DNA of 64,000 bases, taken from assembly GCA_023249095.1 (NCBI GenBank), contig JAHFDK010000013.1, forward strand, positions 28 through 64,027, read 5' to 3'. Below are positions 30,498 through 45,779 of this stretch, piece by piece. The notes under the pieces were generated by a model that had not been told where the DNA came from, did not search any database, and saw only the letters and a list, made by a program, of their open reading frames with translations. Numbering within the stretch: the stretch's first letter is position 1; each line of letters begins with the position of its first letter. Position numbers and translations under genes: made by a program. The stretch comes from Candidatus Rokuibacteriota bacterium. GTDB taxonomy: Bacteria > Methylomirabilota > Methylomirabilia > Rokubacteriales > CSP1-6.

Positions 30498-33400
30498 TCA
30501 GAATCCGAGCGCGCGGACCTCGTCTCGGAAGCGCTGGACGTTGCGGAGCTTGATCTCCTCGTAGCCGCGGATCAGGTCGGGCAGGCTCGCGAGCTTGACG
30601 GCGCGTTCGTAGCGCTCCGGCGAGAGGCCGACGAGCGCTTTCTCGACGAGCGCGCGATACTCCCCGGGGAGCTGGCGCTCCACACGCCGCATCGCCGCGA
30701 AACCGAACGGGTCGAGCCAGGTGCCGCGCAGCGCTTTCATCCCGGCAAGCACGCCGAAGATCGGATCGAACCACGTGCCGAGCCGAATCTTCCGTGTGAC
30801 GCCAAGGGCGCGGAGGAAGGGCGGGTGCAGGTTATAGTGGAGGGTGACGCCGCCGGGGAACTCGGTGGCCAGCGCGCGCGCGATGTCCGTCTTGCGATGT
30901 AGACGCGCCACCTCGTATTCGTCCTTGTACGCCATCAGCTTGAACAGATGGCGGGCGACCGCCTCGGAGAAACGCGACTCCTCGGGCATGGCGGCGGCTT
31001 CCGACTCGCGTACGCGCTGCACGAAGTGGAGATACTGCCGCGCGTACGCCGCATTCTGGTAGGCGAGCAGCTCGGGCACGCGCACCTCCAGGAGGCGCCG
31101 GAGCTCGCCGGTGGCCCCGACTGCTTCCACGAGCTGCCGCGCCTCCGCGGAGAGCTCCGGCGCCGCGTCGACGGCGCCCAGGCGGTGCCGCGTGACCGTG
31201 CGCACCCAGGCGGGGTCGACGACGAGCAACCGGCCCGCGCGGAACGCGTGGCTGTTCATCGGCACGGAGACGCCGTTCAGAACGATCGCTTCCTCGATCG
31301 CCTCCGCGCTCACGGGGAGGGCGCCGGCCTGCCAGGCGGCGCCCAGCACGATCATGTTGGCGGCCATGTGGTCGTCGAAGAGCGTCTCGGCCAGCCCGAG
31401 CGCGTCGAGGTAGAGGTTTTCGTCCTTGCGTGTGACCCGGTTGATCGACGTGATGAGTCCGTTCGTCTCGGGGAACTCGACCGTCGTCGACGTGACCATC
31501 GCGCCGGTCGGCACCTGGCTGGTCGAGACGATCGCGATCGTCCGCTCGGGGCGAGCGTGATCGAGGTTCTGCGGTGAGGTCGCGACGAGGATGTCGAATC
31601 CGAGATAGCAGTCCGCGGACCCGGCGGCGATCTTGTTCGAGACGTCGGAGCTGCGGTCGAAGATCTTGAGGTGCGAGACGACCGGCCCGCCCTTCTGGCT
31701 GAGACCGGTCTGGTCGAGGCCGCGGACGTGCTTGCCGTCGAGGAGCGCGGCGGTGCCCAGGATCTGGTTCACGGTCACCACGCCGGTGCCGCCGATGCCC
31801 ATCATGAAGATATTGGCGTCGCCCGGTACCTTGAGCTCGGGCTCGGGCAGCGCCCGCTCGACCTTGAAGACGCGGCGCTCCTTCTTCCCGGGGTCGACGA
31901 GCGGCACCACGGTCAGGAACGAGGGACAGTCCCCCTTCAGACACGAGTAGTCCTTGTTGCACGACGATTGGTGAATCTGCGTCTTCCGTCCGAATTCGGT
32001 CTCGACGGGATGCACCGAGAGGCAGTTGCTCTTCACGCCGCAGTCACCGCAACCCTCGCAGACCGCCTCGTTGATGACGACGCGCATTGCCGGGTCGGGG
32101 AGCCGGCCGCGCTTGCGCAGCCTGCGCTTCTCCGCGGCGCACCGCTGGTCGTAGACGAGCACCGTGACGCCCGGAATATCGCGGAGCAGCCGCTGCGCCT
32201 CGTCGAGCCGGTCACGGTGCCAGACCTCAACGCCGGGCGGCCATACCGTGCCCTTCGGATACTTGTCCGGCTCGTCGGTCATCACGATGATGCGCTTGAC
32301 GCCCTCGGCGGCGAGCGAGCGCGTCAGCTCGGGCACCGGCATCGCGCCGGCGGCGTCCTGGCCGCCCGTCATCGCCACCGCCGAGTTGTAGAGGATCTTG
32401 TAGGTGATGTTGGCGCTCGACGCGACCGCCTGGCGGATCGCCAGCGAGCCGGAATGGAACAAGGTGCCGTCGCCGAGATTCTGGAAGAGGTGCTTCGTCT
32501 CGGTGAATGGCGCGATGCCCACCCACTGAACGCCCTCGCCGCCCATGTGGGTGAGCCCCATCGTCTTGCGGTCCATCAAGAGCGCCATCCCGTGGCAGCC
32601 GATGCCGGCGCTGGCGATCGAGCCCTCCGGGAGCACGGTCGAACGGTTATGCGGGCAGCCCGAGCAGAAGTAGGGCTGACGCACCAGCGTGAGCGGCGCG
32701 GGCCGCTGGCGCAGCGCCTCGAGGAGCGCCACGCGCGCCGTGATCGACTCGAGGTGGATGCGTCGCTCGAGGCGCGAGGCCACGATCTCGGCGATCCGGT
32801 CGGCGTCGAGCTCGCCGTCGGCGGGCACGAGCGGCCGGTCGTGCTCGTCGGACTTGCCGATTACCAACGGGCGCTCGGCCTGGTTGTAGAGGATGTCGCG
32901 GATGAAGAGCTCGCAGAACGCCCGTTTTTCCTCGACGACCAGCAGTTCCTCGAGACCGCGGGCAAACTCGCGGACCGTGCCCGGCTCCATCGGGAACAGC
33001 ATCTCGATCTTCAAGAGCCGGATGCCGTACTGTCGGAGCGCCGCGTTGTCGAGCCCAAGCTCGGCGAGCGCCTCGCAGAGGTCGTGGTAGGTCTTGCCGG
33101 GCGCGGCGATGCCGAGCCAGGCATTCGGCGTGGGGAGCGTGACGCGATTGAAGCGGTTCGCCGCCGCAAATGCCTTGGCGGCCTCGAGCCGCCCGTAGTG
33201 GATCTCGCGCTCGGTCTCGAGCCCCCACGGCGGCATCAGCAGCGGATTCTGTCGCGCCTGCCAGGGCCGCCCCTCGTAGACGAACCCAGGGTCGGCGACG
33301 GCGATCCGGTCCGGCGCCACCTCGGCGGTGGCGATTTCATCGGCGACGTTGGTCACGATCTTGACGCCCACCCAGAGCCCGGAATAGCGAGAGAGCTCGA

Positions 33401-33962
33401 AGCCGAGCCGGCCGAGGTCGAGGATTTCTTGCGCCGAGCCGGGAAAGAGCACCGGGAAGAGCGCGTCGTAGAAGGCGACCTCCGAGTGCGACGGAATCGT
33501 GGACGACTTGGAGAGCGGGTCGTCCCCGCCCAGCGCGAGCACGCCGCCATGACGCGCGACGCCCGCGAAGTTCGCGTGCTTGAAAATGTCACCGGTGCGG
33601 TCGACGCCGGGCCCCTTGCCGTACCACATGCCGAGAACGCCGTCGTACTTCGGCTGCGGGAACAGGTTGGCGAGCTGGCTGCCGTAGACCGCCGTCGCCC
33701 CGAGATCCTCGTTCACACCCGAGAGGAAGACGACGTTGTGCTCGCGGAGCAGGGCGGGGTTGCGCTCGAGCGTGAGGTCGAGACCACCGAGCGGGGAGCC
33801 CCGATAACCGGAGATGAGCGTGGCGGTATTGAGCCCACGGCGTTTATCGGCTCGGTGCTGATCGAGCGGCAAGCGCACCAGCGCCTGGATGCCAGAGAGA
33901 AGGATGAGCCCTTCTTCCTGACGGTACTTGGCGTCCAGGGTGAAATCACGCTTGATCGCCAT
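30498..33962 (-). CDS. Indolepyruvate:ferredoxin oxidoreductase family protein (fused alpha/beta)
   Basis: 'YRQEEGLILLSGIQALVRLPL', 'ISGYRGSPLGG', the TPP motif 'GIGCHGMA' and the ferredoxin-type motif 'CEGCGDCGVKSNC'. ATG 33962 is preceded by 'gagaggaga'. The 1251-aa track ORF is over-extended. Confidence 0.9.
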   Translation of the reverse strand: MAIKRDFTLDAKYRQEEGLILLSGIQALVRLPLDQHRADKRRGLNTATLISGYRGSPLGGLDLTLERNPALLREHNVVFLSGVNEDLGATAVYGSQLANLFPQPKYDGVLGMWYGKGPGVDRTGDIFKHANFAGVARHGGVLALGGDDPLSKSSTIPSHSEVAFYDALFPVLFPGSAQEILDLGRLGFELSRYSGLWVGVKIVTNVADEIATAEVAPDRIAVADPGFVYEGRPWQARQNPLLMPPWGLETEREIHYGRLEAAKAFAAANRFNRVTLPTPNAWLGIAAPGKTYHDLCEALAELGLDNAALRQYGIRLLKIEMLFPMEPGTVREFARGLEELLVVEEKRAFCELFIRDILYNQAERPLVIGKSDEHDRPLVPADGELDADRIAEIVASRLERRIHLESITARVALLEALRQRPAPLTLVRQPYFCSGCPHNRSTVLPEGSIASAGIGCHGMALLMDRKTMGLTHMGGEGVQWVGIAPFTETKHLFQNLGDGTLFHSGSLAIRQAVASSANITYKILYNSAVAMTGGQDAAGAMPVPELTRSLAAEGVKRIIVMTDEPDKYPKGTVWPPGVEVWHRDRLDEAQRLLRDIPGVTVLVYDQRCAAEKRRLRKRGRLPDPAMRVVINEAVCEGCGDCGVKSNCLSVHPVETEFGRKTQIHQSSCNKDYSCLKGDCPSFLTVVPLVDPGKKERRVFKVERALPEPELKVPGDANIFMMGIGGTGVVTVNQILGTAALLDGKHVRGLDQTGLSQKGGPVVSHLKIFDRSSDVSNKIAAGSADCYLGFDILVATSPQNLDHARPERTIAIVSTSQVPTGAMVTSTTVEFPETNGLITSINRVTRKDENLYLDALGLAETLFDDHMAANMIVLGAAWQAGALPVSAEAIEEAIVLNGVSVPMNSHAFRAGRLLVVDPAWVRTVTRHRLGAVDAAPELSAEARQLVEAVGATGELRRLLEVRVPELLAYQNAAYARQYLHFVQRVRESEAAAMPEESRFSEAVARHLFKLMAYKDEYEVARLHRKTDIARALATEFPGGVTLHYNLHPPFLRALGVTRKIRLGTWFDPIFGVLAGMKALRGTWLDPFGFAAMRRVERQLPGEYRALVEKALVGLSPERYERAVKLASLPDLIRGYEEIKLRNVQRFRDEVRALGF

Positions 33963-34044
33963 GGAGTCTCCTCTCGAGGTGCTGACCGTATGATACGAGC
34001 GGCCCTGATGAGGCGCAAATCTGATTGGGCCAGGAGTCATCTCG

Positions 34045-34479
34045 ATGATCGTGATCAGGCCCTGCCGTGTCGAGGAGTGTCCGGCGGTGTTGGCCCTCTG
34101 GGAGCGCGCCGGCGCCATTCCGAGCCCGACCGATACGCTCGAGGAGCTCCGGCGGCTGGTCCGGGCGCATGGCGACGGTTTCCTCGTCGCGATCCAGCAG
34201 GGCGCCATCGTCGGGAGTGTGATCGGGGGATGGGACGGCTGGCGCGGCAACATTTATCGCCTGGCGGTCGCACCGGAGGCGAGGCGCGTCGGCCTGGCGC
34301 GAAGGCTCGTCCACGAGGCCGAGCTCGTCTTGACGATGAAGGGCGCACGCCGGATGTCGGCGCTCGTCGAGCGCCACGAAGCCCATGCGGTCGGCTTCTG
34401 GGACGCGCTCGCGGAACGCGGCTGGCAGCGAGACGAGCGGATGACGCGCTACATCAAGCCGGCGCAATCCGATTCGTAG
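34045..34479 (+). CDS. GNAT-family N-acetyltransferase
   Basis: 'IYRLAVAPEARRVGLARRLVHEAELVL' is the acetyl-CoA-binding motif A (Q/RxxGxG/A type) in a protein of about 144 aa. Confidence 0.8.
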   Translation: MIVIRPCRVEECPAVLALWERAGAIPSPTDTLEELRRLVRAHGDGFLVAIQQGAIVGSVIGGWDGWRGNIYRLAVAPEARRVGLARRLVHEAELVLTMKGARRMSALVERHEAHAVGFWDALAERGWQRDERMTRYIKPAQSDS

Positions 34480-34518
34480 TTCCTTGACACCACTCTGGGC
34501 ATCGACTGAGATGGACCG

Positions 34519-35004
34519 GTGGACCGCGATGCCCTGAAGCGCCTCCTCAGCGAGGCGCGCCGCGCAACGCACGCGGAGGCTGGCACGGTGTATCTCCGCG
34601 AGGGCGACCAGCTACACTTCGCGGCCGTGCAGAACGACGTCCTGGCGCAGCGGGTTGGCGCGGCCGAGGCCGAGGGTCGCCTCACGGCGGGCCCGCTGGA
34701 TCTCAACACGCCGAGCCTGGCGAGCTACGTGATGCTCACGCGGGCCGTCGTCAACATCCCCGACGTCTACGAGATCCGCCCGGAGCGGCCCTATGAGTTC
34801 GACCGGCGGATGGACGCGACGCACGGCTACCGGACGCGGTCGATGCTCGTGATGCCACTCCGCGACGGCCGGGGCACGATAGTCGGCGTGGTCCAGCTTA
34901 TCAACGCTCGAAACGAGGCTGGCGAGATCGTCGCGTTCGACGCGGGCTGCGAGGACCGACTGGCGGCATTATTGACCGGCTTCGCCAAGGCGGGTGGATC
35001 GTAA
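34519..35004 (+). CDS. Stand-alone GAF-domain protein
   Basis: 'GTVYLREGDQLHFAAVQND', 'SMLVMPLRDGRGTIVGVVQLINARNE' and 'FD' are typical of the GAF fold. No output domain is present. Confidence 0.7.
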   Translation: MDRDALKRLLSEARRATHAEAGTVYLREGDQLHFAAVQNDVLAQRVGAAEAEGRLTAGPLDLNTPSLASYVMLTRAVVNIPDVYEIRPERPYEFDRRMDATHGYRTRSMLVMPLRDGRGTIVGVVQLINARNEAGEIVAFDAGCEDRLAALLTGFAKAGGS

Positions 35005-35007
35005 GGC

Positions 35008-35478
35008 TTAGACGCCGCGCCAGAGGCCGCGGCCGGCGTCGCGGGCCTCGCGCTGTAGCTTCACGAAGAGCTCCTGGTGCCTGACGTTCGGGGGGACGGT
35101 CATCACCTGGGCGTAGCCCAGGCGCAGCAACTCGGCGTTCACCATCACGTCGTCGACCCAGACGTAGGCCAGGAGCCGCCCGTACTGGTCCCGCGTCCGG
35201 ACGTCCAGCTCGAGCCGCACGCGCCTGCCCCCCACCAGGCGCCTGTTCGTCTCGGCCGCCTCGCGACCTCCGGGTTCCTCACCTTTGGTCGGGTGGTGTA
35301 TCTCCGGCGTGTTCATGCCGATGTAGCGGATCTTCTCCACGCGGTCGCCGAGCTTCACGTAGATCGTGTCGCCGTCCACGACGCGGATCACAGTGCCTTC
35401 GACCGGCTGGCCCTGGGCGGCCGGAGCCAGGACGAGGAGCGGCAGAAGCATGAGGGGAAGGTGCCGCCGGAGCGCCAC
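35008..35478 (-). CDS. Secreted thermonuclease (staphylococcal-nuclease fold)
   Basis: Signal peptide 'LPLMLLPLLVLAPAAQG'. Also 'VIRVVDGDTIYVKLGDRVEKIRYIGMNTPE', 'GREAAETNRRLV' and 'DQYGRLLAYVWVDDVMVNAELLRLGYA'. Confidence 0.85.
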   Translation of the reverse strand: MALRRHLPLMLLPLLVLAPAAQGQPVEGTVIRVVDGDTIYVKLGDRVEKIRYIGMNTPEIHHPTKGEEPGGREAAETNRRLVGGRRVRLELDVRTRDQYGRLLAYVWVDDVMVNAELLRLGYAQVMTVPPNVRHQELFVKLQREARDAGRGLWRGV

Positions 35479-35573: not shown

Positions 35574-35837
35574 CTACTCGACGCGAAACATGGCGTAGCC
35601 GAGTGACCTGAGCTGAGTGTCGACGAACGGCTGATGGCGCCGCGCGGTGCCTCTGCGCTCGACGGTGTCCCGGTCGCCATTTACGACCCGGCGGTCGCGA
35701 CCGGATCGGCGGTCCAGGAAGACCTCGACGTTTTCCTCGGACGCGAACTGTCTTGCGAGGTATTCGCACAGGCTGGTCTGGTCGCGCGCCACGATGAAGT
35801 AGTGTCGGGTCATAACGGCCATAGGAGTATCTTCCAC
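35574..35837 (-). CDS. Small Arg-rich hypothetical protein (paralog of 21186-21422)
   Basis: 'MTRHYFIVARDQTSLCEYLARQFASEENVEVFLDRRSGRDRRVVNGDRDTVERRGTARRHQPFVDTQLRSLGYAMFRVE'. The start may be an internal Met (MAV.. or MTR..). It lies 16 nt downstream of the NYN gene. Confidence 0.6.
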   Translation of the reverse strand: MEDTPMAVMTRHYFIVARDQTSLCEYLARQFASEENVEVFLDRRSGRDRRVVNGDRDTVERRGTARRHQPFVDTQLRSLGYAMFRVE

Positions 35838-35853
35838 GAAACAGTCTTGAGGG

Positions 35854-36393
35854 TCAAGGTCGGCGGAGCCGTCCGAGGGCGCGCCGGGCTCTCCGGGCCT
35901 TTTTGGAAAGACGACGGGGGTTGCCGCGCTTGTCCAGTACGGGCTCGGCGTCTGAGTCGGCGTCTTTTGCCGCGGGGTTGGCTGCAGCGGGGTCTTCCGT
36001 TGGCGCGGACGGGCTGCCGTGGAGTGGCAGCGCTTCCAGAAATTGGTCGGCCGTCAGGGCGGCGCAGCCGGCCCGGCGGGCCGCGTCCTGGATCTTCCGG
36101 TCGGAGCTGACGACGACCGCGCCGCTCTTCCACTGGCGCGCGAGTCGCATGAGCTCGTCGTCGGCCGTCAGCGGCGGCCGCGAGAAGATCACACGGATCC
36201 GGCCCGCTGACGGGGCGCCGCCGGAGACTCGCGCGCCGTCGAACACGACCGTGAACTCGTCGCGTGGCCCCCGGCGAGCCCGCGCCAGCAGGTGCAGGAG
36301 CGCCCGGCGTCCCGCCTCGAGGCTCTCGGCCTCGCGAGCCCGGAGCTCCGGGCTCCGGCGGATGACGTTATAGCCATCGATGAGCCAGCGCAT
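35854..36393 (-). CDS. YacP-like NYN-domain protein (predicted RNase)
   Basis: 'MRWLIDGYNVIRRSPEL', 'FTVVFDG' and 'VVVSSDRKIQDAARRAGCAALTADQF' match the YacP/Rae1-type NYN pattern. The basic C-terminal tail is Arg/Lys-rich. Alternative GTG start at 36414. Confidence 0.7.
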   Translation of the reverse strand: MRWLIDGYNVIRRSPELRAREAESLEAGRRALLHLLARARRGPRDEFTVVFDGARVSGGAPSAGRIRVIFSRPPLTADDELMRLARQWKSGAVVVSSDRKIQDAARRAGCAALTADQFLEALPLHGSPSAPTEDPAAANPAAKDADSDAEPVLDKRGNPRRLSKKARRARRALGRLRRP

Positions 36394-36403
36394 CGGAGCC
36401 GGA

Positions 36404-37573
36404 TCACCCCCCACGCCGATAGCAGAGCTTCGTTCCTTCTTGAAGGCCGAGGCTCACGAGGCGCAGAACGCGGCGGGGATATAGAAGCCAGGACGGAGTC
36501 ATGGGATAGTGCCGCGCCAGGACGTGTCGCTGTGGGAAGCCGAGCTCCGCCAGGTACGCTGCTTTCCCAATCACCCCAGGGATCGAGAGCGCCACCAGCA
36601 GCTCGCCAGGAGTCTCCACTCCTCTTCGCCTCGCGACGAGGCGAATGAACGCCCGCTCCAGCGGGCCGAGGGCAGGCAGCGCTCCGCGCACCGCGTCCGG
36701 CAGCTCCAGACGACCCAACAGCCTGTCGAGGACAGAGACGGCGTAAGCGAGGGGTCGCAAGGCCCCCGAGGCTCGAGCTTGCCCCAGCAGAGACGGCCAG
36801 GGCGCCGCCCGCAGCACGAGGGCGAGGTCAACCAGCCAGATCAGACGAGAGTATGAATGCTTGAGCGCGTGCACGACAAGCTGGAGCCGCAGGTGGACCG
36901 GTGAGAGGACGAGCGTCGTCGTGTCGCCTGGCTCCAGTGGCGTGGCCTCGCGCCAGAGGGCGGCAGGGTCCAGGCGAAAGGCGCGCGCCTTGCGGCCGAC
37001 CCATTCGCTCCCGACGATCTCCGTGTGGAGGTCGAACGAGACCACGCCTCGAGAGAAGAACGGAGATGACGGCGAGACGGGCTCGTAGCCGCGGTGCCGC
37101 AGCCATCCGGTTACCGAGGGCAGGTCCGACGGGCGCAGGAGCAGATCGATGTCGCCCAGGGGGCGCAGGCCCACGTGACCCCGATACTCGTCGTCGAGCA
37201 ACGCCGCACCCTTCAACACGATCACCTGGCGGCGGTTTTGGCGCAACATCGCGCGCAGCGCCGCCAGCTCGGACAGGGCCGACATGTTGCTGGCGGCGAC
37301 AGCCCGCGTCGCGGCACGCCAGCGATCGAGGTGTGGGACCAGACCCTCGTGCTGTGCCAGGCCCTCGAGCGCTCGGGCGACGAGTCCTGTGACCCCCTCG
37401 CGCTCCGCCTGCTCGAGGAGCGCGGACCATTGCAGGCCGCCGCGGAGAAGCCCGACCAGCTCGTCCTCGATGCTAGCGCCGAGGAACCACCGGACGGCCC
37501 CCACGAGCACCTGCGTCTCGCGCGAGAGCGCGATCTCGGCTGCGGGCAAGACCGCTCCCCTCACTCCCTGCAA
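36404..37573 (-). CDS. Uncharacterised nucleotidyltransferase family protein (NTP_transf_5-like)
   Basis: 'VIVLKGAALLDDEYRGHVGLRPLGDIDLLLRPSDL' and 'DLHTEI' match the family that accompanies HPrK-like kinases in lasso-peptide clusters. The start codon is uncertain (TTG 37573 or GTG 37564). Confidence 0.65.
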   Translation of the reverse strand: MQGVRGAVLPAAEIALSRETQVLVGAVRWFLGASIEDELVGLLRGGLQWSALLEQAEREGVTGLVARALEGLAQHEGLVPHLDRWRAATRAVAASNMSALSELAALRAMLRQNRRQVIVLKGAALLDDEYRGHVGLRPLGDIDLLLRPSDLPSVTGWLRHRGYEPVSPSSPFFSRGVVSFDLHTEIVGSEWVGRKARAFRLDPAALWREATPLEPGDTTTLVLSPVHLRLQLVVHALKHSYSRLIWLVDLALVLRAAPWPSLLGQARASGALRPLAYAVSVLDRLLGRLELPDAVRGALPALGPLERAFIRLVARRRGVETPGELLVALSIPGVIGKAAYLAELGFPQRHVLARHYPMTPSWLLYPRRVLRLVSLGLQEGTKLCYRRGG

Positions 37574-38514
37574 TGCTCGAGGATCGCCGCCTGCACCGCG
37601 GGTAGTCGAGACAGATCGCGGCGGAAGGCGAGCCGGTAGACGAGCGAGGGGCGCGCCGCGACGCGGCCGATCGAGTCGAACTCGTCGCGCAGACGGGTTC
37701 GGTCGTCGAGATCCAGCCGGTAGGTGTGCTTGACGAGCTCGATGAACGCTTCACGCGGCGCGAGGGCCGTGATGCTGACGGCGCAAGGGCGCGCGGTCGG
37801 CTCCGGGTGGCCGAGGACGTACATGCGTCGCACGGGCACGGGCTCCCGGCTGAACGGCCACGGGCCCCCACCGACGGAGATCTGCTGCTTGCCGCCCTGC
37901 GGCGCGACCTCGTGCACCGCGAGGCCACCGGTCCCGAGCGCCGCCAGCACGTCGGGCCACAGCCGGATCTCGGGGTAGCTGGGAACGCCCGCCAGCGTGC
38001 TGCCGTCCTCGACGAGCAGGAGGCCGTCGTCCGTGAGGAGCGGGAACGATCGCCGCACGAAGCTCGTGCTCAGCGTCGACTTGCCCTGGCCGGCCGCGCC
38101 GAGAAAGGCGATGGCGCCGTGCGGGGTCGCGATGGCGCTCGCGTGCAGGACGAGCCGGCCCCGCTGGCTCAGCGCAAGAGGCAGCACCTGGGCCAGGAAG
38201 AGATGCGCGACGAGCCGCCCCCGCGTGCCTCGCCGCGGGACACAGCGCACCTGCTGCCCGTCGCGCGACACCAGGAAGACGGCGCGACCGGGAAACCTCA
38301 CGAGGAAGCCCGATCGACAGCGGCCGATGGTCAGGGAGATCGTCCCATTCGGCAGGCGAAGCGTATGGCGACGACCGATCAATCGTTCCCTGATCGGGCC
38401 GCGACGCCGCTCGAGCACGCAATCGAGCGGCTTGCCGGCGACCTCAGGGAGCCCCGGCAGCGGCACGTTGCTCGCGACGACGAGCCCGAACGCGGAATAC
38501 GCGGTCACGCCCAA
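37561..38514 (-). CDS. HPr-kinase-C-like serine kinase (lasso-cluster type)
   Basis: 'LVLHASAIATPHGAIAFLGAAGQGKSTLSTSF' (P-loop) and 'LLTDDGLLLV' resemble the HprK C-terminal domain. The N-terminus 'AYSAFGLVVASNVPLPGL' is typical of the RiPP-associated subgroup. Confidence 0.7.
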   Translation of the reverse strand: MGVTAYSAFGLVVASNVPLPGLPEVAGKPLDCVLERRRGPIRERLIGRRHTLRLPNGTISLTIGRCRSGFLVRFPGRAVFLVSRDGQQVRCVPRRGTRGRLVAHLFLAQVLPLALSQRGRLVLHASAIATPHGAIAFLGAAGQGKSTLSTSFVRRSFPLLTDDGLLLVEDGSTLAGVPSYPEIRLWPDVLAALGTGGLAVHEVAPQGGKQQISVGGGPWPFSREPVPVRRMYVLGHPEPTARPCAVSITALAPREAFIELVKHTYRLDLDDRTRLRDEFDSIGRVAARPSLVYRLAFRRDLSRLPAVQAAILEHCRE

Positions 38515-39672
38515 CTACACCGCGTAGCGCGAGACGACCTCGGTGACGAAGGCGGCGGCTTCGGCGGGCGACTGGAAGATGGCTGGGTGGCGACGATGGA
38601 CCTCGCGCTCGATGTCGCCCAGGGCCCGCCGACCATCGCAGAGCTCGAGGACGGACCGGCGCGCCTGGCCCCAGGGAGAGAGCCGCGGCACGAACTGGAG
38701 ATCGGTCCGCTCCAGGTCTTCTTTGCAGAGGAGCATTCCCTGGAAGGTGGAGTGAGCGAACCGCCCTTTGCTCGCCGGGTCTGGTCCGCGCCCGGCGCGA
38801 CCGTCCCTTACGTCGACGGTCCAGCTCACGACGCCGGCGGCGGGAAGGATCCGCAGCCTCACGCCGATCTGGTCGTGCTCTTCGAGCGCGACCGGGCGGG
38901 CGATCGGAAAGAAAACCTGTCTCCGGAAGATCGGCCGCGCCGCGAGCGGGGAGTTGGTCAGGGTGACGCTCGGCGAGAGCTGCGCCTCGAACCAGCCGCC
39001 GATCCCGTGAAGGGCCCCGGGCCGCCCCGCCACGAGGACGACCTCGGCGCCCAGAGCGGCCGTCGACGCCGTCGAGAGCCTGACCGAGATCGCCCGCGCC
39101 GGAGCTCCGAGCATGTGTGCCGGGTCGAACCTGGCCGGATAACCGGTGTTCGCGGCGATCGCGAGCGCCGGGTGGAAGTCGTAGCCGGCGGGCGTCCGCC
39201 CCCAAAAATCCACCTGCCCGAAGAGCTCGCCACTTTCCACGGGCGCCACGACCAGCCCGATCTCGCCAGGAATCATCACCCCGTCCGGCTTCAGGAAACG
39301 CGCCCGAGCGTCTGCAAAGTACTCGAGGATGCCCGACTCGAAGCCAAAGCGCCCGATCTGGTCGGCGAGGACCACGTCGACTCGCTCTGGCAGCTCCACG
39401 CGGGTCGAGAGTCCCTTGATGTGCGTGATGCGATCCTGAAATCCGTTGACCCAGGCGATTTCCCGGGCGAGGCCGATAATCGGCCCCTCGTCGACAGCGT
39501 AGACACGCTTGGCCCCGGCGCGGCAGGCCATGAGTCCGAGAATCCCGGTGCCCGCGCCGAGATCCAGCACCACGTCGCCGGGCGTGACAACTTCATCGAT
39601 CGCCTGCCGGAAGGCGGACACGCGGACCGCGTCGGCGAGATATTGACGATGCTCGTCGAGGACGAGCGACAT
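38515..39672 (-). CDS. Class I SAM-dependent methyltransferase of PRMT type with a C-terminal PqqD/RRE-like segment
   Basis: 'DAVRVSAFRQAI', 'VVLDLGAGTGILGLMACRAGAKRVYAVD', 'VDVVLADQIGRFGFESGILEYFADARARFLKPDGVMIP' (PRMT motifs I, post-I and a double-acidic loop as D...E). The C-terminal 'RLSPWGQARRSVLELCDGRRALGDIEREVHRRHP...AAAFVTEVVSRY' resembles the helical part of PqqD. Confidence 0.75.
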   Translation of the reverse strand: MSLVLDEHRQYLADAVRVSAFRQAIDEVVTPGDVVLDLGAGTGILGLMACRAGAKRVYAVDEGPIIGLAREIAWVNGFQDRITHIKGLSTRVELPERVDVVLADQIGRFGFESGILEYFADARARFLKPDGVMIPGEIGLVVAPVESGELFGQVDFWGRTPAGYDFHPALAIAANTGYPARFDPAHMLGAPARAISVRLSTASTAALGAEVVLVAGRPGALHGIGGWFEAQLSPSVTLTNSPLAARPIFRRQVFFPIARPVALEEHDQIGVRLRILPAAGVVSWTVDVRDGRAGRGPDPASKGRFAHSTFQGMLLCKEDLERTDLQFVPRLSPWGQARRSVLELCDGRRALGDIEREVHRRHPAIFQSPAEAAAFVTEVVSRYAV

Positions 39673-39709
39673 CAGACCGCCGGCACCGGCATGCTGGCGC
39701 GCCGCTCCA

Positions 39710-39865
39710 TCAGAGGCACGCCATCATCATGGGGCCCCCGTCGCCGAGGCTCGCCGTGCCCGAATGCGTCAGCTTCTCGACGGGTCCGTACTCGATCAAT
39801 CGGGGCTTCACGTAAGGCTTCTTCGAGGGTCCGAGCGTCACGTCCTGAGTCGGCTCCTCCTTCAT
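39710..39865 (-). CDS. Lasso-peptide precursor (51 aa): leader of 34 aa plus predicted core SGTASLGDGGPMMMACL
   Basis: 'MKEEPTQDVTLGPSKKPYVKPRLIEYGPVEKLTH|SGTASLGDGGPMMMACL'. The leader fits YxxPxLxxxGxxxxxTx exactly (Y-17, P-14, L-12, G-8, T-2). Asp sits at core position 8. A strong SD 'gaggag' lies 5 nt before the ATG, 17 nt after the cyclase stop. In the track it is the last 51 codons of the 373-aa ORF 39710-40831. Confidence 0.75.
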   Translation of the reverse strand: MKEEPTQDVTLGPSKKPYVKPRLIEYGPVEKLTHSGTASLGDGGPMMMACL

Positions 39866-39882
39866 AATGTCTCCTCGTTGGC

Positions 39883-41772
39883 CTACGCCGCGCGTGACGC
39901 GGGAAACATGGTCCTGTACCACTGTTCTGTCGCGAGGATCATCCAGAGGGGTCCAAGACATCCGCGGTCGCCACGATGCAGGCGCCGGTACATCTCCCTG
40001 ACCCGCTCGCCGCGCACGAACCCGTCGGCCTCCAGGCGGAGCCGGGCGAACGCCTCGGCGGCGCCCTCGCGCTCGAGCGACGCAGCGTAAAGGTACGTGA
40101 AGTCGCCTTTGGTCGTGCGGCGTGCCACGGAGGAGGGAAGAAGATCTCCCGCCGCTCGGCGCAGGATGAACTTCGTCTCGGTGCCGCGCCAGCGCTGCTC
40201 CTCGGGCAGCGCCAGGGCGAACTCGATGAGCCGCCGGTCGTTGAAGGGGAACCGGCTCTCCATGGACCGGCGCCTCTCGAACCGGTCCACCATTTCGTAC
40301 TCGGCGGCGCTCCAGCCGCTCTGCAGCTGGCGGTGGATGGCGCGCTGGGCGAACGTCGGGAACCGAGGCGTGGCGACGTCCCGCGCGAGCCGTTCTTGGA
40401 GGCCGACGCGCCGGGCGAAGTCGGGCGCGATCCAGTCCGGGACGTCCCAGCTTCGGAAGCGCCGCACGAGCCGTTTGGCCGGGCGCGGAGCCAGCGGCAT
40501 CACACACCATCTGATTGCATCCGCCAGGCCGACCGGCGGGCCGCCCAGCAAATTCAAGGAGCGAATATCGTCGCGGACCCGGCGCGCGAGCGCGACCAGA
40601 CGCACCCGGCGGAGCAGATCGGCGCAGTGAGCAGTGTCGCCGGTAAGCCACTCGTCGCCGCCGTAGCCCCAGAGTGCGGTCCGGGCGCCACGTCGATGCG
40701 CCTCGGTGAGCAGGAGTCCCCAGGGGTGCGTGTTGGGGAGATCCGGAAAGTCCCGCAGGTCGGCGACCTGCTCGGCCAGCGAGGGCGAGACCGCGTCGTC
40801 GGCCCTCACGTGGCGCACCGGCAACTCCCACATCCTCGCAACGTCGTCGACCCAGCCTCGCTCGTCCGCGTCCGCGTGCGTGAAGTCGAGGGAGTACGCC
40901 TCGAATCCCCGTCCGGGTGCGTGGCCGTCACGAGCAAGCCGGGCGGCGACGCCGACGATCGACGAAGAGTCGAGCCCCCCGCTCAGGAACACCGCGACGG
41001 GGGTGACGCTCCGGAGCCGACAGTGCACCGCCTCGCGGAAGATCTCGATGAAGTGCTCCGCGTACTCGTCGTCCGAGCGATACCGGATCTCGCGGCGCGG
41101 ATCGACGTCGAAGTAGCGCGCCGTGCGGACGCGACCGTCCTCGACGATCAGGACGTGGCCCGGCGCCAGGCGCAGGATCCCACGATAGAGGGTCTCCTCG
41201 AGGTCGACGAGGCGACTGCTCAAATACTCACCCACGACCCCCTCGTTCGGTTCTGGGCCGAGCGGCAGGTTGTCGAGCAGCTGGCGCAGCTCCGAGCCCC
41301 ACATGAAGGTCTGGCCGTGGGTGCAGTAGTAGAACGGCCGGATCCCGAGGGGGTCGCGGGCGCAGAAGAGCCGGCGGCGCCGGCGGTCCCAGATCGCGAA
41401 CGCGAAGTCGCCGACGATCCGTGAGGCGCAGCCGTCGTCCCAGAGGGCGTAGGACTGCAGCACGAGCTCGGCGTCGGTGTCAGTCCGGAGATGGACGCCC
41501 GCGGCTCGCAGCCATGCGGCGAGCTGAGCACGATTGTCGACCCGGCCGTCGAGCACGAGGCAGAGGGTTTCGCTCTCGTCGAGCAACGGCTGCTTCTCAC
41601 CCAGCGACTCCGGCGTCGTGCGCGAGATGCGGTGCCCGAGGCCCGCAGACCCGTCCGTCCAGTAGCCCTCGCCGTCCGGGCCGCGGTGCGCGACCGCCGC
41701 AGTCATCTTCCTGAGAAGCGTGACGTCGACCGGACGACCGTGGGGGGCGTACACGCCGGCGAGACCGCTCAC
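39883..41772 (-). CDS. Lasso-peptide cyclase (asparagine-synthetase B homolog, C protein)
   Basis: 'DGRVDNRAQL', 'GDFAFAIWDRRRRRLFCARDPLGIRPFYY' and the PP-loop 'VFLSGGLDSSSIV'. The N-terminus 'VSGLAGVY' lacks the Cys nucleophile, as in lasso cyclases. The GTG start at 41772 overlaps the B2 stop (GTGA). Confidence 0.9.
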   Translation of the reverse strand: MSGLAGVYAPHGRPVDVTLLRKMTAAVAHRGPDGEGYWTDGSAGLGHRISRTTPESLGEKQPLLDESETLCLVLDGRVDNRAQLAAWLRAAGVHLRTDTDAELVLQSYALWDDGCASRIVGDFAFAIWDRRRRRLFCARDPLGIRPFYYCTHGQTFMWGSELRQLLDNLPLGPEPNEGVVGEYLSSRLVDLEETLYRGILRLAPGHVLIVEDGRVRTARYFDVDPRREIRYRSDDEYAEHFIEIFREAVHCRLRSVTPVAVFLSGGLDSSSIVGVAARLARDGHAPGRGFEAYSLDFTHADADERGWVDDVARMWELPVRHVRADDAVSPSLAEQVADLRDFPDLPNTHPWGLLLTEAHRRGARTALWGYGGDEWLTGDTAHCADLLRRVRLVALARRVRDDIRSLNLLGGPPVGLADAIRWCVMPLAPRPAKRLVRRFRSWDVPDWIAPDFARRVGLQERLARDVATPRFPTFAQRAIHRQLQSGWSAAEYEMVDRFERRRSMESRFPFNDRRLIEFALALPEEQRWRGTETKFILRRAAGDLLPSSVARRTTKGDFTYLYAASLEREGAAEAFARLRLEADGFVRGERVREMYRRLHRGDRGCLGPLWMILATEQWYRTMFPASRAA

Positions 41773-42278
41773 GGCGCGCGCTCGCGGGGGGCGATGGTTG
41801 CGGACGTGGGCAGCCAGGAGGGCATGCGGACGAGCACGGCGTAGCTCGCGGGCCCGGGGTCCGCGCCGACGACGGCCCCGCCGAGCTCCACCCAGGCGTG
41901 GCCCTCGAGCGGCCCGCGGGCCTTCGTGACGCCAACGACCAACTGCGCCGGCAGCCCGCGTCGCTTGAGGAGCGACAAGACGACCAGCGCCTTCGCGAGG
42001 CACGTGGGCCTCGGCCGCCAGCAGCGGGCGGCGACCTCCACGAGCCAGGCCGTGCGCGGCGCGCCACGGGGATAGTCCTCGGCGCAACGACGGCGTGCCG
42101 GGGACAGCGCCTCGACAAGAGCGAGCGCTCGCCGGAGTCCGACGAGCCGCAGACCAACGCTGACGGGCGGCAGGAGGACCAGCGCGCGGGCGAGGAGCGC
42201 CCAGTCGTCTCGCGGAAGTCTCGCAACGCCGAGGAGCGCACGCGTGAACCGGGCGCTACGCGGACTTCGCGGCGACAC
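41769..42278 (-). CDS. Lasso-peptide leader peptidase B2 (transglutaminase-like Cys protease)
   Basis: 'RPTCLAKALVVLSLLKRRGLPAQLVVGV' and 'EGHAWVELGG' give the Cys/His pair of the Transglut_core3 family. Confidence 0.8.
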   Translation of the reverse strand: MSPRSPRSARFTRALLGVARLPRDDWALLARALVLLPPVSVGLRLVGLRRALALVEALSPARRRCAEDYPRGAPRTAWLVEVAARCWRPRPTCLAKALVVLSLLKRRGLPAQLVVGVTKARGPLEGHAWVELGGAVVGADPGPASYAVLVRMPSWLPTSATIAPRERAP

Positions 42279-42549
42279 GCGTCAGTCCTTTCGCGCACAG
42301 ATGGTCGACGAGCTCGAGTAGATCACGTTCGAGCACGGCGGGAGCGGCGTCGTACTCCGAGCGCAGCACCGCGAATACCGTGCCGAGGGATCCGTGATCT
42401 TCGATGAGCCGCCAGGTTCGCGCGCCCACGTCGTCGAGCCCGAAATAGACTCCCGTCTCGAGATTGAGGATCACAATCTCGCCGTCCAGCTCGCGGAACG
42501 TGATGTCAGGATTGATCGTCACCACGGAGGCCAGCGTGGACCTGCTCAT
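42256..42549 (-). CDS. Lasso-peptide B1 protein (PqqD-family RiPP recognition element)
   Basis: 'ITFRELDGEIVILNLETGVYFGLDDVGARTWRLIEDHGSLGTVFAVLRSEYDAAPAVLERDLLELVDHLCAKGL' is a canonical PqqD/RRE. ATG 42549 (SD 'gaggaa') is preferred over ATG 42585. Confidence 0.8.
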   Translation of the reverse strand: MSRSTLASVVTINPDITFRELDGEIVILNLETGVYFGLDDVGARTWRLIEDHGSLGTVFAVLRSEYDAAPAVLERDLLELVDHLCAKGLTRVAAKSA

Positions 42550-42569
42550 TGGCACCGTTCCTCGCACCG

Positions 42570-42598
42570 AATCTTCCACACTCATGGATTGAAATCAA
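42570..42598 (-). promoter_or_regulatory. Candidate promoter of the lasso operon
   Basis: Minus strand: TTGATT (42598-42593), 17 nt, AAGATT (42575-42570). This would place the upstream ATG 42585 inside the spacer and supports the 42549 start. The match is weak. Confidence 0.3.
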
Positions 42599-42750
42599 GG
42601 GAGCGCGCGCCACCGTGTCATCGGCATCTCGTGTATGGCACGATGGGCAGACTGTGCAGGGCGGGAGGATCACGCGCATCGTTGAGCCCGGGCTCGGTCC
42701 GCAGGGGCGGTCCGCGTCGTGGACGTGTGGAGCGATTTGATGGCCACGCC

Positions 42751-44367
42751 ATGACGGCGCCAACGCGATGGCCCGAGGCCCGCGCGACGCGTGGGCTCGT
42801 CGCCACGCCGCACGCGCTCGCCTCCGAGGCCGCATTGGCGGTCCTGCAGCGCGGTGGCAACGCCGTGGACGCGGCCATCGCCGCCGCGACCACCGTCGCC
42901 GTCGTCTACCCGCACATGAACGGTGTGGGTGGTGACAGCTTCTGGTTGATCTACGACGGCCGGCGTCACACGCTCCGCGCGCTGAACGCCGCAGGTCGCT
43001 CGGCCGCGGCCGCCGACCTCGACACCTACCGCGCGCGGTTCGGTTCGGCGATCCCCGTGCGCGGCGGGGCGGCGGCGCTGACCGTTCCGGGGGTCGTATC
43101 CGGCTGGTGGGAGGCTCACGTCCTGAGCCGCGACGTGCTGGACTCACCGATCGACTGGCACACCCTCCTCGAGGACGCGATCGCCCACGCCCGCGACGGC
43201 TTTCCGCCGTCGCCGGGCCAGCGGCGTGAGACCGCGGACGCCGCCGACCTCTTCGGCGGCGCGGCGCCCGCCGAGTTGCGGGCCCCGCTCTGGCGCATCT
43301 ACCATCCCGCGCTCCTGGCGCGCGAGCGCTTCGTGCAGGCGGACCTCGCGACGACCCTCGAAGAGATCGCGCGGGGTGGCGCCGACGCGTTCTATCGCGG
43401 CCCGCTCGCCAGGCGGATCGCGCTGGGCGCGGCGGCTGCCGGCAGCCCGCTGACGGGCGACGATCTGGCCCGGCACCAGGCCGAGTGGGTGGACCCGCTG
43501 CGCGTTCCTTACCGGGGCGGCGAGGCGGTGAGCTGTCCGCCGCCGACCCAGGGCTTCGCCGCGCTCGCGATTCTGTCGTTGCTCGAGGGCTTCGACGTCT
43601 CCGCCCTCGGCGAGGCCGACTACGTCCACCTCGTCGTCGAGGCGACGAAGCTCGCGTTCGAGGACCGCGACCGTTACCTCGCCGACCCGACGTTCTCCGC
43701 GGTACCCGTCGAGCGCTGCCTGGATCCGGCGCGCCTCGCCGAACGCCGCCGGGGGATTTCGCGACGGGTGGCGATGCGCGCGGCCGGCGCGCCCGCGAGG
43801 GGCGACACGATCGCCATCGTCACGGCCGACGCACACGGGAATGCGGTGTGCCTGATCCAGAGCCTCTACTGGGAGTTCGGCTCGGGGGTGATCGCCGGGG
43901 ACACCGGCGTGCTCCTGCAGAACCGGGGCGCGTTCTTCTCGCTCGACCCGGCGCACGTGAACCGACTGGCGCCACGCAAGCAGCCCGCGCACACGCTCAT
44001 CCCGTCGATGTATCTGGTGGACGGCCGCCCGCGCCTCGTCTACGGCACGATGGGCGGCGAAGGGCAGCCGCAGACACAGGCGGCGCTCGTGACGCGGATG
44101 GTCGATCGGGGCCTCGGCCCGCAGGCGGCGGTCGAAGCTCCGCGCTGGCTCTTCGGGCGCACGTGGGGCGAGGCGACGCAGTCGCTCAGGCTGGAGGCGC
44201 GGTTCGGTGACGAAGTGACCCAGTCGCTCCGGGAGCGCGGTCATGACGTGAGCGTCGTCGAGGACTGGAGCGATCTGATGGGCCATGCCCAGGTCATTCG
44301 TGTCGATCCCGACGGGCTCAGCGGCGGCTCCGACCCGCGCGCCGACGGCGCCGCGCTCGGAGTTTGA
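42751..44367 (+). CDS. ggt: Gamma-glutamyltransferase family protein
   Basis: 'GGNAVDAAIAAATTVAVVYPHMNGVGGDSFWLIYD', the nucleophile context 'RGDTIAIVTADAHGNAV', and 'GTMGGEGQPQTQ'. Start moved to ATG 42751. Confidence 0.9.
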   Translation: MTAPTRWPEARATRGLVATPHALASEAALAVLQRGGNAVDAAIAAATTVAVVYPHMNGVGGDSFWLIYDGRRHTLRALNAAGRSAAAADLDTYRARFGSAIPVRGGAAALTVPGVVSGWWEAHVLSRDVLDSPIDWHTLLEDAIAHARDGFPPSPGQRRETADAADLFGGAAPAELRAPLWRIYHPALLARERFVQADLATTLEEIARGGADAFYRGPLARRIALGAAAAGSPLTGDDLARHQAEWVDPLRVPYRGGEAVSCPPPTQGFAALAILSLLEGFDVSALGEADYVHLVVEATKLAFEDRDRYLADPTFSAVPVERCLDPARLAERRRGISRRVAMRAAGAPARGDTIAIVTADAHGNAVCLIQSLYWEFGSGVIAGDTGVLLQNRGAFFSLDPAHVNRLAPRKQPAHTLIPSMYLVDGRPRLVYGTMGGEGQPQTQAALVTRMVDRGLGPQAAVEAPRWLFGRTWGEATQSLRLEARFGDEVTQSLRERGHDVSVVEDWSDLMGHAQVIRVDPDGLSGGSDPRADGAALGV

Positions 44368-44372
44368 TGGAC

Positions 44373-44399
44373 ATGGGGGGCCCCGACAAGGCCCCCCAT
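44373..44399. terminator. Perfect 10-bp-stem hairpin between convergent ggt and the cytochrome gene
   Basis: 'atggggggcc' / loop 'ccgacaa' / 'ggccccccat', 6 nt after the ggt stop. There is no T-tract, so it is intrinsic-terminator-like rather than canonical. Confidence 0.5.
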
Positions 44400-44490
44400 A
44401 CCCCCAACGCTTGGCGCGCGCTCAACCCTCAGAGCGCCTCCCGCTCGGGCCGTCCCGGCGAAGGCGTGGCGCGCCCCGTTGGCGCCCACG

Positions 44491-45711
44491 TCAGCTCAGC
44501 GGAAGCTCGCGCTCGAAGACGCTGAAGGGCGAGCGGCGCGCGGCCTCGAGCGCTTTCCTGATCTGCGGCTCGCCCCGCCCGGCGCCCTGCCGCAGCAGTG
44601 TCTCGAAGAACCCGACGTAGAACGCGTCCGGCTCGACGACCACGGCCAGGCGCGCGCGCATCCCCGGACCCGGAACCTTCATCCGATAAGCCAGGGTCAC
44701 GCTCTGCCCGGGCCGGAGCCGCGTGTCGAACGCTTCGCGCGACAGGTCGAGGGCCACCTCGCGCCCGACGATTTTTTCCTGCCGGCTTCCGGCCAGCACC
44801 TGCCCCGCCCCGTCCACCAGCTCCGCGCTCAGGACGACCCGCGGCGTGACGTAGGTCGGAAACGCGTGGCCAACGCGCGTGCTGGTCACGCGTAAAGTGA
44901 CGGCCGCGACGTCGCCGGGACGGTAACGCGCGGCCCCCGCCGCCGCGGTGATCGTGAGCCCCGAGCGCACCATGTCGGCGTCGTGGATGCCGCGCCACAG
45001 ATGCCGCCGCTCCGGCATGTGGCAATCCTGGCACTGGACGCCCTCACGGGCGAACCGGCTCGCCTTCCATTCGTTGTAGGTGTTCTCGAGCAGCTTGCCG
45101 TTCAGCGCGAACCCGTCGGGTGCGAACTGGTGACAGCTGCCGCAGAACTCGGACTTGAGGAAGGCGGGCGTGCGCGTGACCCCGTCGTGAGGCAGCGTCT
45201 GCCGTGGGACGCCGCTCGCGATCGAGCCGTCACGCCGGGGCGGGCCGAAGCGCTGATGGCCCCGCACGTGGCAGCCGGCGCACGGCACGCCCTTGGCGCG
45301 GAGCGAGCCGTCGTGCGCGGGGTTGGGCCGCACCTCGTTGCCCTCAGCGACCAGCGGCGATTGCTCGGCGAGCGGCGCGTGACACGTGAGACATCCGAGC
45401 GCCGACCGCGGATCGCCCTCGAGCATCTCCACGAGCTGACCCTCGAGGCCCGGGCCCGTCGCCGCGGCATGCGTGCTCTCGCGCCAGTCGGCGAACTGCG
45501 CGGAGTGACAGGTCCCGCACGCCTCGGGGTGGAGCGAGGCCTCCAGCGGCGAGAAGCGCGCGGGCGGCGGGCCTTGAGGCGCCAGCGGCGGGCGCCAGTG
45601 CCGCCGGAGAAAGTCCTGGATCGCATCGGCGCCGACGGCGGCGGTGCCGAGCAGCACGGCCAGCGTCGCCGCGCCCGCGGTGCGAAGGGGCAGTCGCATC
45701 GACGGAAGCAT
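44491..45711 (-). CDS. Secreted pentaheme c-type cytochrome
   Basis: Signal peptide, then five CxxCH motifs (CGTCH, CLTCH, CAGCH, CGSCH, CQDCH) in the first 260 or so residues, followed by a heme-free C-terminal domain of about 140 aa. Confidence 0.85.
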   Translation of the reverse strand: MLPSMRLPLRTAGAATLAVLLGTAAVGADAIQDFLRRHWRPPLAPQGPPPARFSPLEASLHPEACGTCHSAQFADWRESTHAAATGPGLEGQLVEMLEGDPRSALGCLTCHAPLAEQSPLVAEGNEVRPNPAHDGSLRAKGVPCAGCHVRGHQRFGPPRRDGSIASGVPRQTLPHDGVTRTPAFLKSEFCGSCHQFAPDGFALNGKLLENTYNEWKASRFAREGVQCQDCHMPERRHLWRGIHDADMVRSGLTITAAAGAARYRPGDVAAVTLRVTSTRVGHAFPTYVTPRVVLSAELVDGAGQVLAGSRQEKIVGREVALDLSREAFDTRLRPGQSVTLAYRMKVPGPGMRARLAVVVEPDAFYVGFFETLLRQGAGRGEPQIRKALEAARRSPFSVFERELPLS

Positions 45712-45779
45712 GATAGCGCGGGCCGACTGCGGTACAGTATGGCCGCGCAGTCATCCTGACCGCTTCCTGGAGAATCGTC

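Follow-up and report, generated by a model that had tools for sequence, protein, structure and literature searches.

A lasso-peptide gene cluster with a PRMT-fold methyltransferase and a kinase in Rokubacteria, read as encoding a phosphorylated and methylated peptide

A 64-kb stretch of DNA from a Candidatus Rokuibacteriota genome (contig JAHFDK010000013.1; the whole stretch is referred to as the window) contains on its minus strand, at positions 36404-42585, what is read here as a seven-gene lasso-peptide cluster in the order B1-B2-C-A-MT-K-N, the product of which would be a phosphorylated and methylated lasso peptide (probability about 0.6; Table 1). The assignment to the lasso-peptide class is secure, and the cluster has nothing out of the ordinary within its lasso subfamily, which is large, conserved and, it seems, uncharacterised. 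The lasso class and tailoring by kinase and nucleotidyltransferase are already known; what appears new to the lasso field is the family of methyltransferases to which MT belongs, which has the fold of protein arginine methyltransferases (PRMTs), is strictly coupled to a kinase and comes with a Cys-Leu/Met-rich precursor signature. The wider proposal, to which somewhat less than even odds are given, is that a PRMT fold of the eukaryotic type was recruited by bacteria for the tailoring of peptides and methylates sulfur (yielding S-methyl-Cys, possibly a Met sulfonium) rather than arginine, always together with an HPrK-like kinase, and that this pairing defines a new and very widespread phospho-/methyl-lasso subclass, whose tails are rich in thioethers and end in Cys-Leu and whose hosts are uncultured phyla of soil and groundwater.

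Lasso genes, tailoring enzymes and their conservation

Family models for B1, B2, C and the precursor A bear out the B1-B2-C-A order that had been put forward in an earlier sequence-only reading of this DNA. B1 scores 58.2 bits with Pfam PqqD (PF05402; cut-off 23.4) and has lasso_PqqD models as its top NCBIfam matches, while B2, the translation of which shows the motifs CLAKAL and GHAWVE, reaches 78.3 bits with Transglut_core3 (PF13471) and 74.7 bits with NF033537 lasso_biosyn_B2 (cut-off 33). C contains SGGLDSS and scores 168.5 bits with Asn_synthase (PF00733) and 107 bits with GATase_7, but its top NCBIfam model, the lasso cyclase model lass_lactam_cya, gives 446 bits and stays under a strict 'exception' cut-off of 525; measured against family thresholds, the earlier calls thus stand in full for B1 and B2, and for C with this restriction. 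The precursor matches NF033521 lasso_leader_L3 at 21.7 bits (cut-off 19), and AGGAG lies 6 nt ahead of its ATG. The genes are tightly spaced: B1 and B2 overlap by 23 nt, B2 and C by 4 nt (GTGA), gaps of 17 and 37 nt separate C from A and A from MT, the MT stop abuts the K start (0 nt), and K overlaps N by 13 nt. The junctions described earlier (B1/B2, GTGA, C-A, MT/K and K/N) were all found as claimed.

The same gene set recurs widely. A word-index search with MT gave more than 1900 matches, and the homologues form 1441 clusters at 50% identity with E <= 1e-30, of which at least 150 have a full-length representative of about 380 aa. When genomes representing species were scanned for MT, 80 loci were found (individual loci are cited below by L numbers), the window proteins were mapped onto all loci by phmmer, and the main counts refer to 49 loci in which MT is flanked by 5 kb or more on either side. 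K is present in all 49 of these full-flank loci, C and B1 in 48 each, B2 in at least 37 (a count limited by sensitivity) and N in 19; the distance between MT and K is at most 400 nt in 58 of 83 loci. The hosts include Rokubacteria/Methylomirabilota, Acidobacteriota (Terriglobia, Vicinamibacterales, Bryobacterales), Nitrospira, Binatia and Thermoleophilia, as well as Proteobacteria including Burkholderiales, 'delta proteobacteria' and Sphingomonadales. By this gene content, the functional cluster would be B1-B2-C-A-MT-K, with N as an accessory component. The gene set is no oddity of the window, and both the very large conserved family and the ABC-2-type exporters that its members often carry had been overlooked by the sequence-only reading. 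The family appears as a large unexplored natural-product group from phyla of which hardly any members are in culture (Rokubacteria, Acidobacteriota, Nitrospira, Binatia).

With regard to export, the 64-kb window yielded no homologue of ABC ATPases along its whole length, and hence no McjD-type ABC exporter; nor is there a lasso isopeptidase in the flanking genes, which were identified, so that both absences noted by the sequence-only reading are upheld. An ABC-2 exporter pair is present in 9-11 and any ABC ATPase in 25 of the full-flank loci, and, on these gene counts, many family members have no exporter either, so that its absence is not special to the window cluster. Where such a pair (ABC_tran plus ABC2_membrane) lies inside the cluster (L001:10228-11814, L004:11857-13439, L012, L014, L046, L050, L051, L056, L065 and L080), it consists of separate genes and not of a McjD-type fused transporter, and L087, L092 and L093 have an exporter of the fused ABC_membrane/ABC_tran type. 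A related cluster with B2, C, MT, K, PqqD and an ABC gene is found in the cultured strain Alteraurantiacibacter aquimixticola SSKS-13 (L075; NZ_SSHH01000004.1, 190763-211845); its MT shares 36% identity and keeps R250, its predicted core is GSAGPNGDVMGTFMAMP, and it offers a practical entry point for experiments.

That MT is a true PRMT homologue with altered catalytic loops is strongly confirmed, in agreement with its earlier description as a PRMT-type methyltransferase. A profile built on 44 proteins of the family matches PRMT6, PRMT1, PRMT2, PRMT3, PRMT8 and CARM1 over residues 7-278 with E values of about 1e-39 to 1e-32, the AlphaFold2 (AF2) model, with a predicted local distance difference test score (pLDDT) of 83.5, is matched by Foldseek to PRMT6 and yeast Hmt1 with target-normalised template modelling (TM) scores of 0.77-0.83, and motif I for S-adenosylmethionine (SAM) reads VLDLGAGTG. 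When aligned to PRMT6 by HMMER, MT has Asp104 in place of the double-E loop's first Glu, the column of the second Glu is occupied by Ala or Ser with Glu/Asp112 one residue earlier, and the THW loop aligns with Ile248-x-Arg250, so that the canonical combination of double-E and THW is absent. Asp104 and Arg250 are found in 53/53 MTs whose precursor ends in Cys-Leu, and several further Arg and His residues are invariant. Trp or Tyr occurs at position 250 only in the most distant homologues, and the E104/W250 combination is confined to three distant loci without an adjacent lasso cluster. A search for covariation of MT with Cys-Leu versus other core endings returned the stretch NTGYP (175-179), invariant in Cys-Leu loci and altered in 5/9 of the others, and was set aside as too weak and confounded by phylogeny. 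Some relatives have two PRMT-like MT genes per cluster (MT-K-MT in L004/L005, MT-MT-K in L043 and L091, and also L048), a hint that methylation may take place more than once or at more than one site.

MT had also been credited with an RRE-like tail of its own (RRE, RiPP recognition element; RiPPs are peptides made on the ribosome and modified after translation), and this was not demonstrated. Residues 330-385 are conserved, and the model places three helices (333-381) and no beta-sheet there; the comparison of the tail with B1 by hhalign gives a probability of 0.7%, Pfam PqqD (PF05402) matches 3/17 MT tails weakly (best E 0.011), and the match to PqqD structures in the PDB is marginal (E 0.13), leaving an RRE identity unproven. 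No description of a PRMT-type methyltransferase in a lasso or RiPP pathway was found in open-access papers and bioRxiv, although one in a subscription journal is possible, and within that literature the earlier statement that a lasso system with a PRMT-like enzyme is undescribed holds; a text match to 'PRMT' in LassoPred proved to be the file extension.prmtop and not an enzyme. In a 2024 review of RiPP methyltransferases (PMC11285071), S-methyltransferases of such pathways are called rare, and there is no PRMT-type enzyme among those listed.

Among the cluster enzymes, K is the weakest family call. Its description as an HPr-kinase-like kinase is supported at the superfamily level by fold and relatives, but the match to Pfam Hpr_kinase_C is under threshold (E = 0.035). 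Matches to HprK_rel_A/B are weak (E 2e-7 and 1e-6), relatives of K carry precomputed Hpr_kinase_C/ScmC matches (PF07475/PF27840), and residues G139, G142, G144, K145, S146 and T147 are invariant. The top PDB folds for the AF2 model (pLDDT 94) are PEPCK and not HPr kinase, hence the modelled fold would support the superfamily only. In nine loci (L022, L023, L024, L069, L075, L087, L088, L092 and L093), K is directly followed by a small PqqD gene of its own in addition to the B1 beside B2, which suggests that the kinase has a leader-binding partner of its own there; the window cluster has one PqqD gene only. The claim that N resembles NTP_transf_5 nucleotidyltransferases is substantiated by 150.4 bits with PF14907. 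In the metagenome-assembled genome (MAG) AR22 of Candidatus Rokuibacteriota (L007, ~10381-10382), 169 nt inside N are missing (window 36512-36680, about residues 298-354), a loss that would cause a frameshift; either the assembly is at fault or N is decaying in the sister strain, and decay would fit an accessory role of N.

Table 1. Genes of the lasso-peptide cluster and the Arg-rich neighbour (window coordinates)
Gene	Position	Strand	Product	Basis
B1	42256..42585	-	PqqD-type RiPP recognition element, 109 aa	PqqD HMM (hidden Markov model)
B2	41769..42278	-	Transglutaminase-like leader peptidase, 169 aa	Transglut_core3, lasso_biosyn_B2
C	39883..41772	-	Lasso cyclase resembling Asn synthetase, 629 aa; starts with GTG, within the GTGA shared with the B2 stop	Asn_synthase, GATase_7
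A	39710..39865	-	51-aa precursor; leader 39764-39865 (MKEEPTQDVTLGPSKKPYVKPRLIEYGPVEKLTH), core plus stop 39710-39763 (SGTASLGDGGPMMMACL)	lasso_leader_L3
MT	38515..39672	-	SAM methyltransferase, type-I PRMT fold (residues 7-278) plus conserved three-helix C-terminal tail (residues ~330-385)	Profile, AF2/Foldseek
K	37561..38514	-	P-loop kinase, HPrK/PEPCK superfamily, 317 aa, Walker A GAAGQGKST	HprK_rel_A/B, AF2 fold
N	36404..37573	-	NTP_transf_5 nucleotidyltransferase-like protein, 389 aa, accessory	PF14907
Rrich	35574..35837	-	Arg-rich protein

Precursor family and the site of methylation

The leader of the window precursor fits the pattern YxxPxLxxxGxxxxxTx with Thr(-2), which delimits the core SGTASLGDGGPMMMACL, where the ring is predicted to join Ser1 to Asp8; the leader motif, a small residue at core position 1 and an Asp/Glu at position 7-9 are all present, and the core ends in ...ACL. 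A leader-motif scan of the family loci found precursors in 76 loci, with 80 unique cores. Their leader is strongly conserved as [KR][KR]xYxxPxL[VI]EYGx[VI]xKLTx, with Lys(-4) in 68/81 precursors and [KR][KR] at -19/-20 in about 85%. The cores typically consist of a Gly/Ser/Thr-rich ring of 8-9 residues closed on Asp or Glu (only at position 8 in 59/80, only at position 9 in 16/80) and a tail that is usually Met-rich, with at least one Ser/Thr within residues 1-8 in all 80; Gly accounts for 21% and Met for 10% of their residues. The C-terminus is Cys-Leu in 61 of the 80 (76%), each of these 61 having exactly one Cys, and the penultimate residue is Cys or Met in 68/80. This Cys-Leu ending and the Met-rich tail had escaped the sequence-only reading, and among the 46 published lasso precursors that a 2023 paper lists there is none with a Cys-Leu end. 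The 34 close homologues of the window precursor follow the pattern [ST]G[TS]xxxG[DE][GA]GPMMMx(1-2)CL, with Thr or Ser at position 3 without exception.

Two kinds of unusual precursor were seen beside these. In L087:6550-6975, L092:4431-4856 and L093:2143-2559, a lasso precursor of ~140 aa has its leader and core fused to a Peptidase_S74 domain, a self-cleaving intramolecular chaperone; the predicted core stops directly before the autocleavage motif S-D-x-R-x-K-x-N-I (e.g. SGSGTGADGGLIVGMQMV/SDRTTKENIV, the slash marking the end of the core), and a lasso precursor with a follower domain that removes itself looks unusual enough to merit separate study. L021 (~13809) and L033 (~14089) have, beside a second copy of the kinase and in the same locus as the MT-linked precursor, a second precursor with a very Lys/Arg-rich, sulfur-free tail (e.g. 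GYGSGQPDNPIAAARRRKKKKSK).

As to what MT methylates, the composition of the cores points to sulfur as the feature that goes with MT. For a comparison of clusters with and without MT, kinase homologues were sampled at 37-45% identity: the cores of the MT-less kinase clusters L087 and L090 have neither Met nor Cys, whereas the tails in the MT-containing clusters L089, L091, L092 and L093 have Met or Cys. With a kinase-only group of eight cores, which includes six published paeninodin-type precursors, Met or Cys occurs in 73/75 unique MT-linked cores and in 0/8 kinase-only cores (Fisher p ~1e-9, with no phylogenetic correction). From this correlation and the invariant single Cys, the methyl acceptor is suggested to be the thiol of Cys16 and/or Met sulfur, with a likelihood just short of even. 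Sulfur methylation near a lasso C-terminus has a precedent in longipeptin A, which has been shown by chemical means to carry an S-methyl-Met sulfonium and for which LopH, of a different fold, is the candidate enzyme (PMC10664482). Canonical arginine methylation of the core was rejected, as 30 of the 80 cores, the window's included, contain neither Arg nor Lys, and so was a disulfide of Cys16, as each Cys-Leu core has exactly one Cys.

The following route can be proposed. B1 would bind the conserved leader, whereupon K would phosphorylate a ring Ser/Thr of the linear precursor; Thr3 is the best candidate here, because the 34 closest precursors have Thr or Ser at position 3 throughout and by analogy to BsfK of Bradymonas sediminis, which, with stimulation by B1, phosphorylates ring Ser3 of a linear precursor that has no C-terminal Ser (PMC10368454). 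In clusters with N, the phosphate may be modified further by this protein, just as PsmN reportedly attaches a hexose to phosphoSer (PMC9266682). MT would then methylate a non-arginine site in the tail, the best guess being S-methylation of Cys16, possibly of Met; in structural terms, Arg250 in place of the THW Trp would anchor the C-terminal carboxylate next to the Cys, and the acidic loop, which is retained, could serve to stabilise the sulfonium as it develops or to take the proton from the thiol. Finally, B2 would cleave after Thr(-2)-His(-1), and C would close the isopeptide ring between Ser1 and Asp8.

Several points weigh against this proposal. The K/MT product and its modification sites are predicted from the genes, no product having been observed; the match of K to Hpr_kinase_C is sub-threshold, as given above, and core position 3 is not kept as Ser/Thr across the wider family. 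Two MT-linked cores have neither Met nor Cys and 19/80 do not end in Cys-Leu, while the corresponding MTs mostly keep D104 and R250, hence Cys cannot be the sole target. The sulfur correlation, moreover, is confounded by shared ancestry and draws on a small comparison group (n=8). PRMT-fold enzymes are, to our knowledge, known only as N-methyltransferases, and we know of no PRMT homologue that methylates S or O.

The retention of MT beside the 19 cores without Cys-Leu would be explained if MT were instead a C-terminal carboxyl O-methyltransferase that forms a methyl ester on Leu17, as in lassomycin, since every precursor has a C-terminus; Cys-Leu-COO- would then be recognised through Arg250 and other invariant arginines, convergently with LasF/StspM on a PRMT fold. 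The invariant Arg in place of the THW Trp fits this, and lasso peptides are known to be modified by C-terminal methyl esters, which are put on the linear precursor (PMC9266682), but the invariance of the Cys and the tracking of MT with Met/Cys are left unexplained, Asp104 and Glu112 beside a carboxylate acceptor are electrostatically awkward, and the known lasso carboxyl methyltransferases belong to other families, so that ester formation is considered unlikely. A true PRMT fold with a retained acidic loop (D104, E112) would also be compatible with N-methylation of Arg or Lys outside the core, either on the leader, where Lys(-4) and the [KR][KR] pair are widely conserved, or on a cellular protein such as the producer's own target, for self-protection, and the window has no dedicated immunity or export gene. 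However, there would be no evident point in methylating a leader that is discarded, the enzyme has lost the THW loop and its second Glu is shifted in spacing, and both the adjacency of MT and K and the sulfur correlation point to the core peptide, which makes such a role hardly probable.

The complete co-occurrence of MT and K (49/49), with abutting genes, could further mean that the two enzymes share one site, through O-methylation of the phosphate on phospho-Ser/Thr, or through elimination and attack by the Cys to give a ring-to-tail thioether. Invariant Arg/His residues of MT could bind phosphate, PsmN is a precedent for phosphate decoration in kinase-type lasso peptides, and the single invariant Cys cannot form an intramolecular disulfide. 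Yet no lyase is conserved in the cluster, as a lanthionine-type crosslink would need, neither variant explains the enrichment in Met, and we know of no precedent for methyl-phosphate esters on peptides; a shared site is thus judged very improbable. If methylation of Cys or Met sulfur is the correct reading, such peptides could be ligands of Cu(I) or soft metals and not classical antibiotics, and MT would open a route to new PRMT-fold chemistry on a non-arginine substrate.

Chromosomal setting and neighbouring genes

The minus-strand run continues beyond N with two further ORFs, an NYN/YacP protein (80 bits with NYN_YacP, as had been called) and the Arg-rich protein Rrich, which has no family match; N and NYN overlap by 11 nt, 16 nt separate NYN from Rrich, and 95 nt separate Rrich from the gene for SNase. 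All nine ORFs are real and lie head to tail in 35574-42585, although the range of 35854-42585 given earlier for nine genes leaves Rrich outside its start. Whether all nine form one functional unit, with NYN and Rrich as tailoring, immunity or regulatory components, is highly doubtful. The tight same-strand spacing favours such a unit, as do the same adjacency in the three closest Rokubacteria loci (L007-L009) and the result that the minus strand has no site resembling a terminator between N and Rrich. With no terminator detected between N and NYN and the 11-nt overlap, co-transcription of NYN and Rrich with the cluster is likely, which speaks for their membership and against a unit that ends with N. 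Both genes are, however, present in only 4/83 MT loci, all closest Rokubacteria relatives, and in 2 of the 49 full-flank loci, being missing from the other 47; the Rokubacteria loci L006-L009 are the only ones in which NYN, Rrich and SNase go with the cluster. Two unrelated metabolic genes, one methionine-synthase-like (Meth_synt_2) and one for ADH/enoyl-CoA hydratase (ECH), separate N in L006 from an NYN-Rrich-response regulator-SNase block about 4 kb downstream. A paralogue of Rrich (78 aa, 21186-21422, minus strand; phmmer E = 3e-6, shared pattern ...FIV...VEV.LDRR...RR) stands alone in the window with no NYN or lasso genes nearby, and Rrich appears to be a small protein family in the source genome. 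NYN/YacP proteins are general factors of RNA metabolism, which also speaks against a place in the pathway. NYN and Rrich are therefore probably lineage-specific neighbours that are co-transcribed here and not pathway members; the nine-gene unit of the sequence-only reading had tight spacing as its sole support.

The cluster does not differ from its flanks in GC content (0.68-0.71), and a scan for promoters and terminators gave nothing informative. The window is collinear with MAG AR22 across 30-47 kb at a DNA identity of 95-97%, and the two MT proteins are 94% identical. One flank encodes SNase, GAF, GNAT and an indolepyruvate-oxidoreductase-like protein (30498-35478) and the other GGT, a multihaem cytochrome and an M1 aminopeptidase (42745-48335); both are kept in synteny among the Rokubacteria relatives L006-L009 and L072, so the lasso cluster occupies a fixed chromosomal site in this lineage.

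Comparison with known systems

As a methyltransferase, MT resembles the eukaryotic type-I PRMTs (PRMT6, PRMT1/Hmt1, CARM1) in its Rossmann and beta-barrel domains (residues 7-278) and SAM motif I, but differs from them in Asp104, the shifted second Glu, Ile-x-Arg250, the extra three-helix tail and a cognate peptide that often has no Arg. Methylation at the tail or C-terminus, as proposed here, is shared with lassomycin/StspM, where it is a C-terminal O-methylation, and with longipeptin A. StspM is, however, similar to mitomycin O-methyltransferases and LopH to the MTHFR regulatory domain, hence neither is PRMT-like or coupled to a kinase as MT is.

With the paeninodin/pseudomycoidin type (PadeK, ThcoK, PsmK/PsmN), the window cluster shares a kinase gene among the lasso genes, in the window a putative HPr-kinase homologue, and, in the case of pseudomycoidin, also a nucleotidyltransferase-like N, which there decorates the phosphate. 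The kinases of this type need a C-terminal Ser, whereas the cores of the window's family mostly end in Cys-Leu, and their acidic cores without Met or Cys are unlike the MT-linked ones; paeninodin/pseudomycoidin-type clusters also have a McjD-type exporter and no PRMT-like methyltransferase, while the reverse is true of the window cluster. The Bsf cluster of B. sediminis differs from that of the window in Ile(-2), a McjD-type ABC exporter and the lack of a methyltransferase. It is similar in its split B1/B2, C, HPrK-like kinase, NTP_transf-type N gene and a precursor without C-terminal Ser, and Thr3 of the window core, which is Thr/Ser in all 34 closest precursors, lies at the position targeted by BsfK, the two kinases being compared by description.

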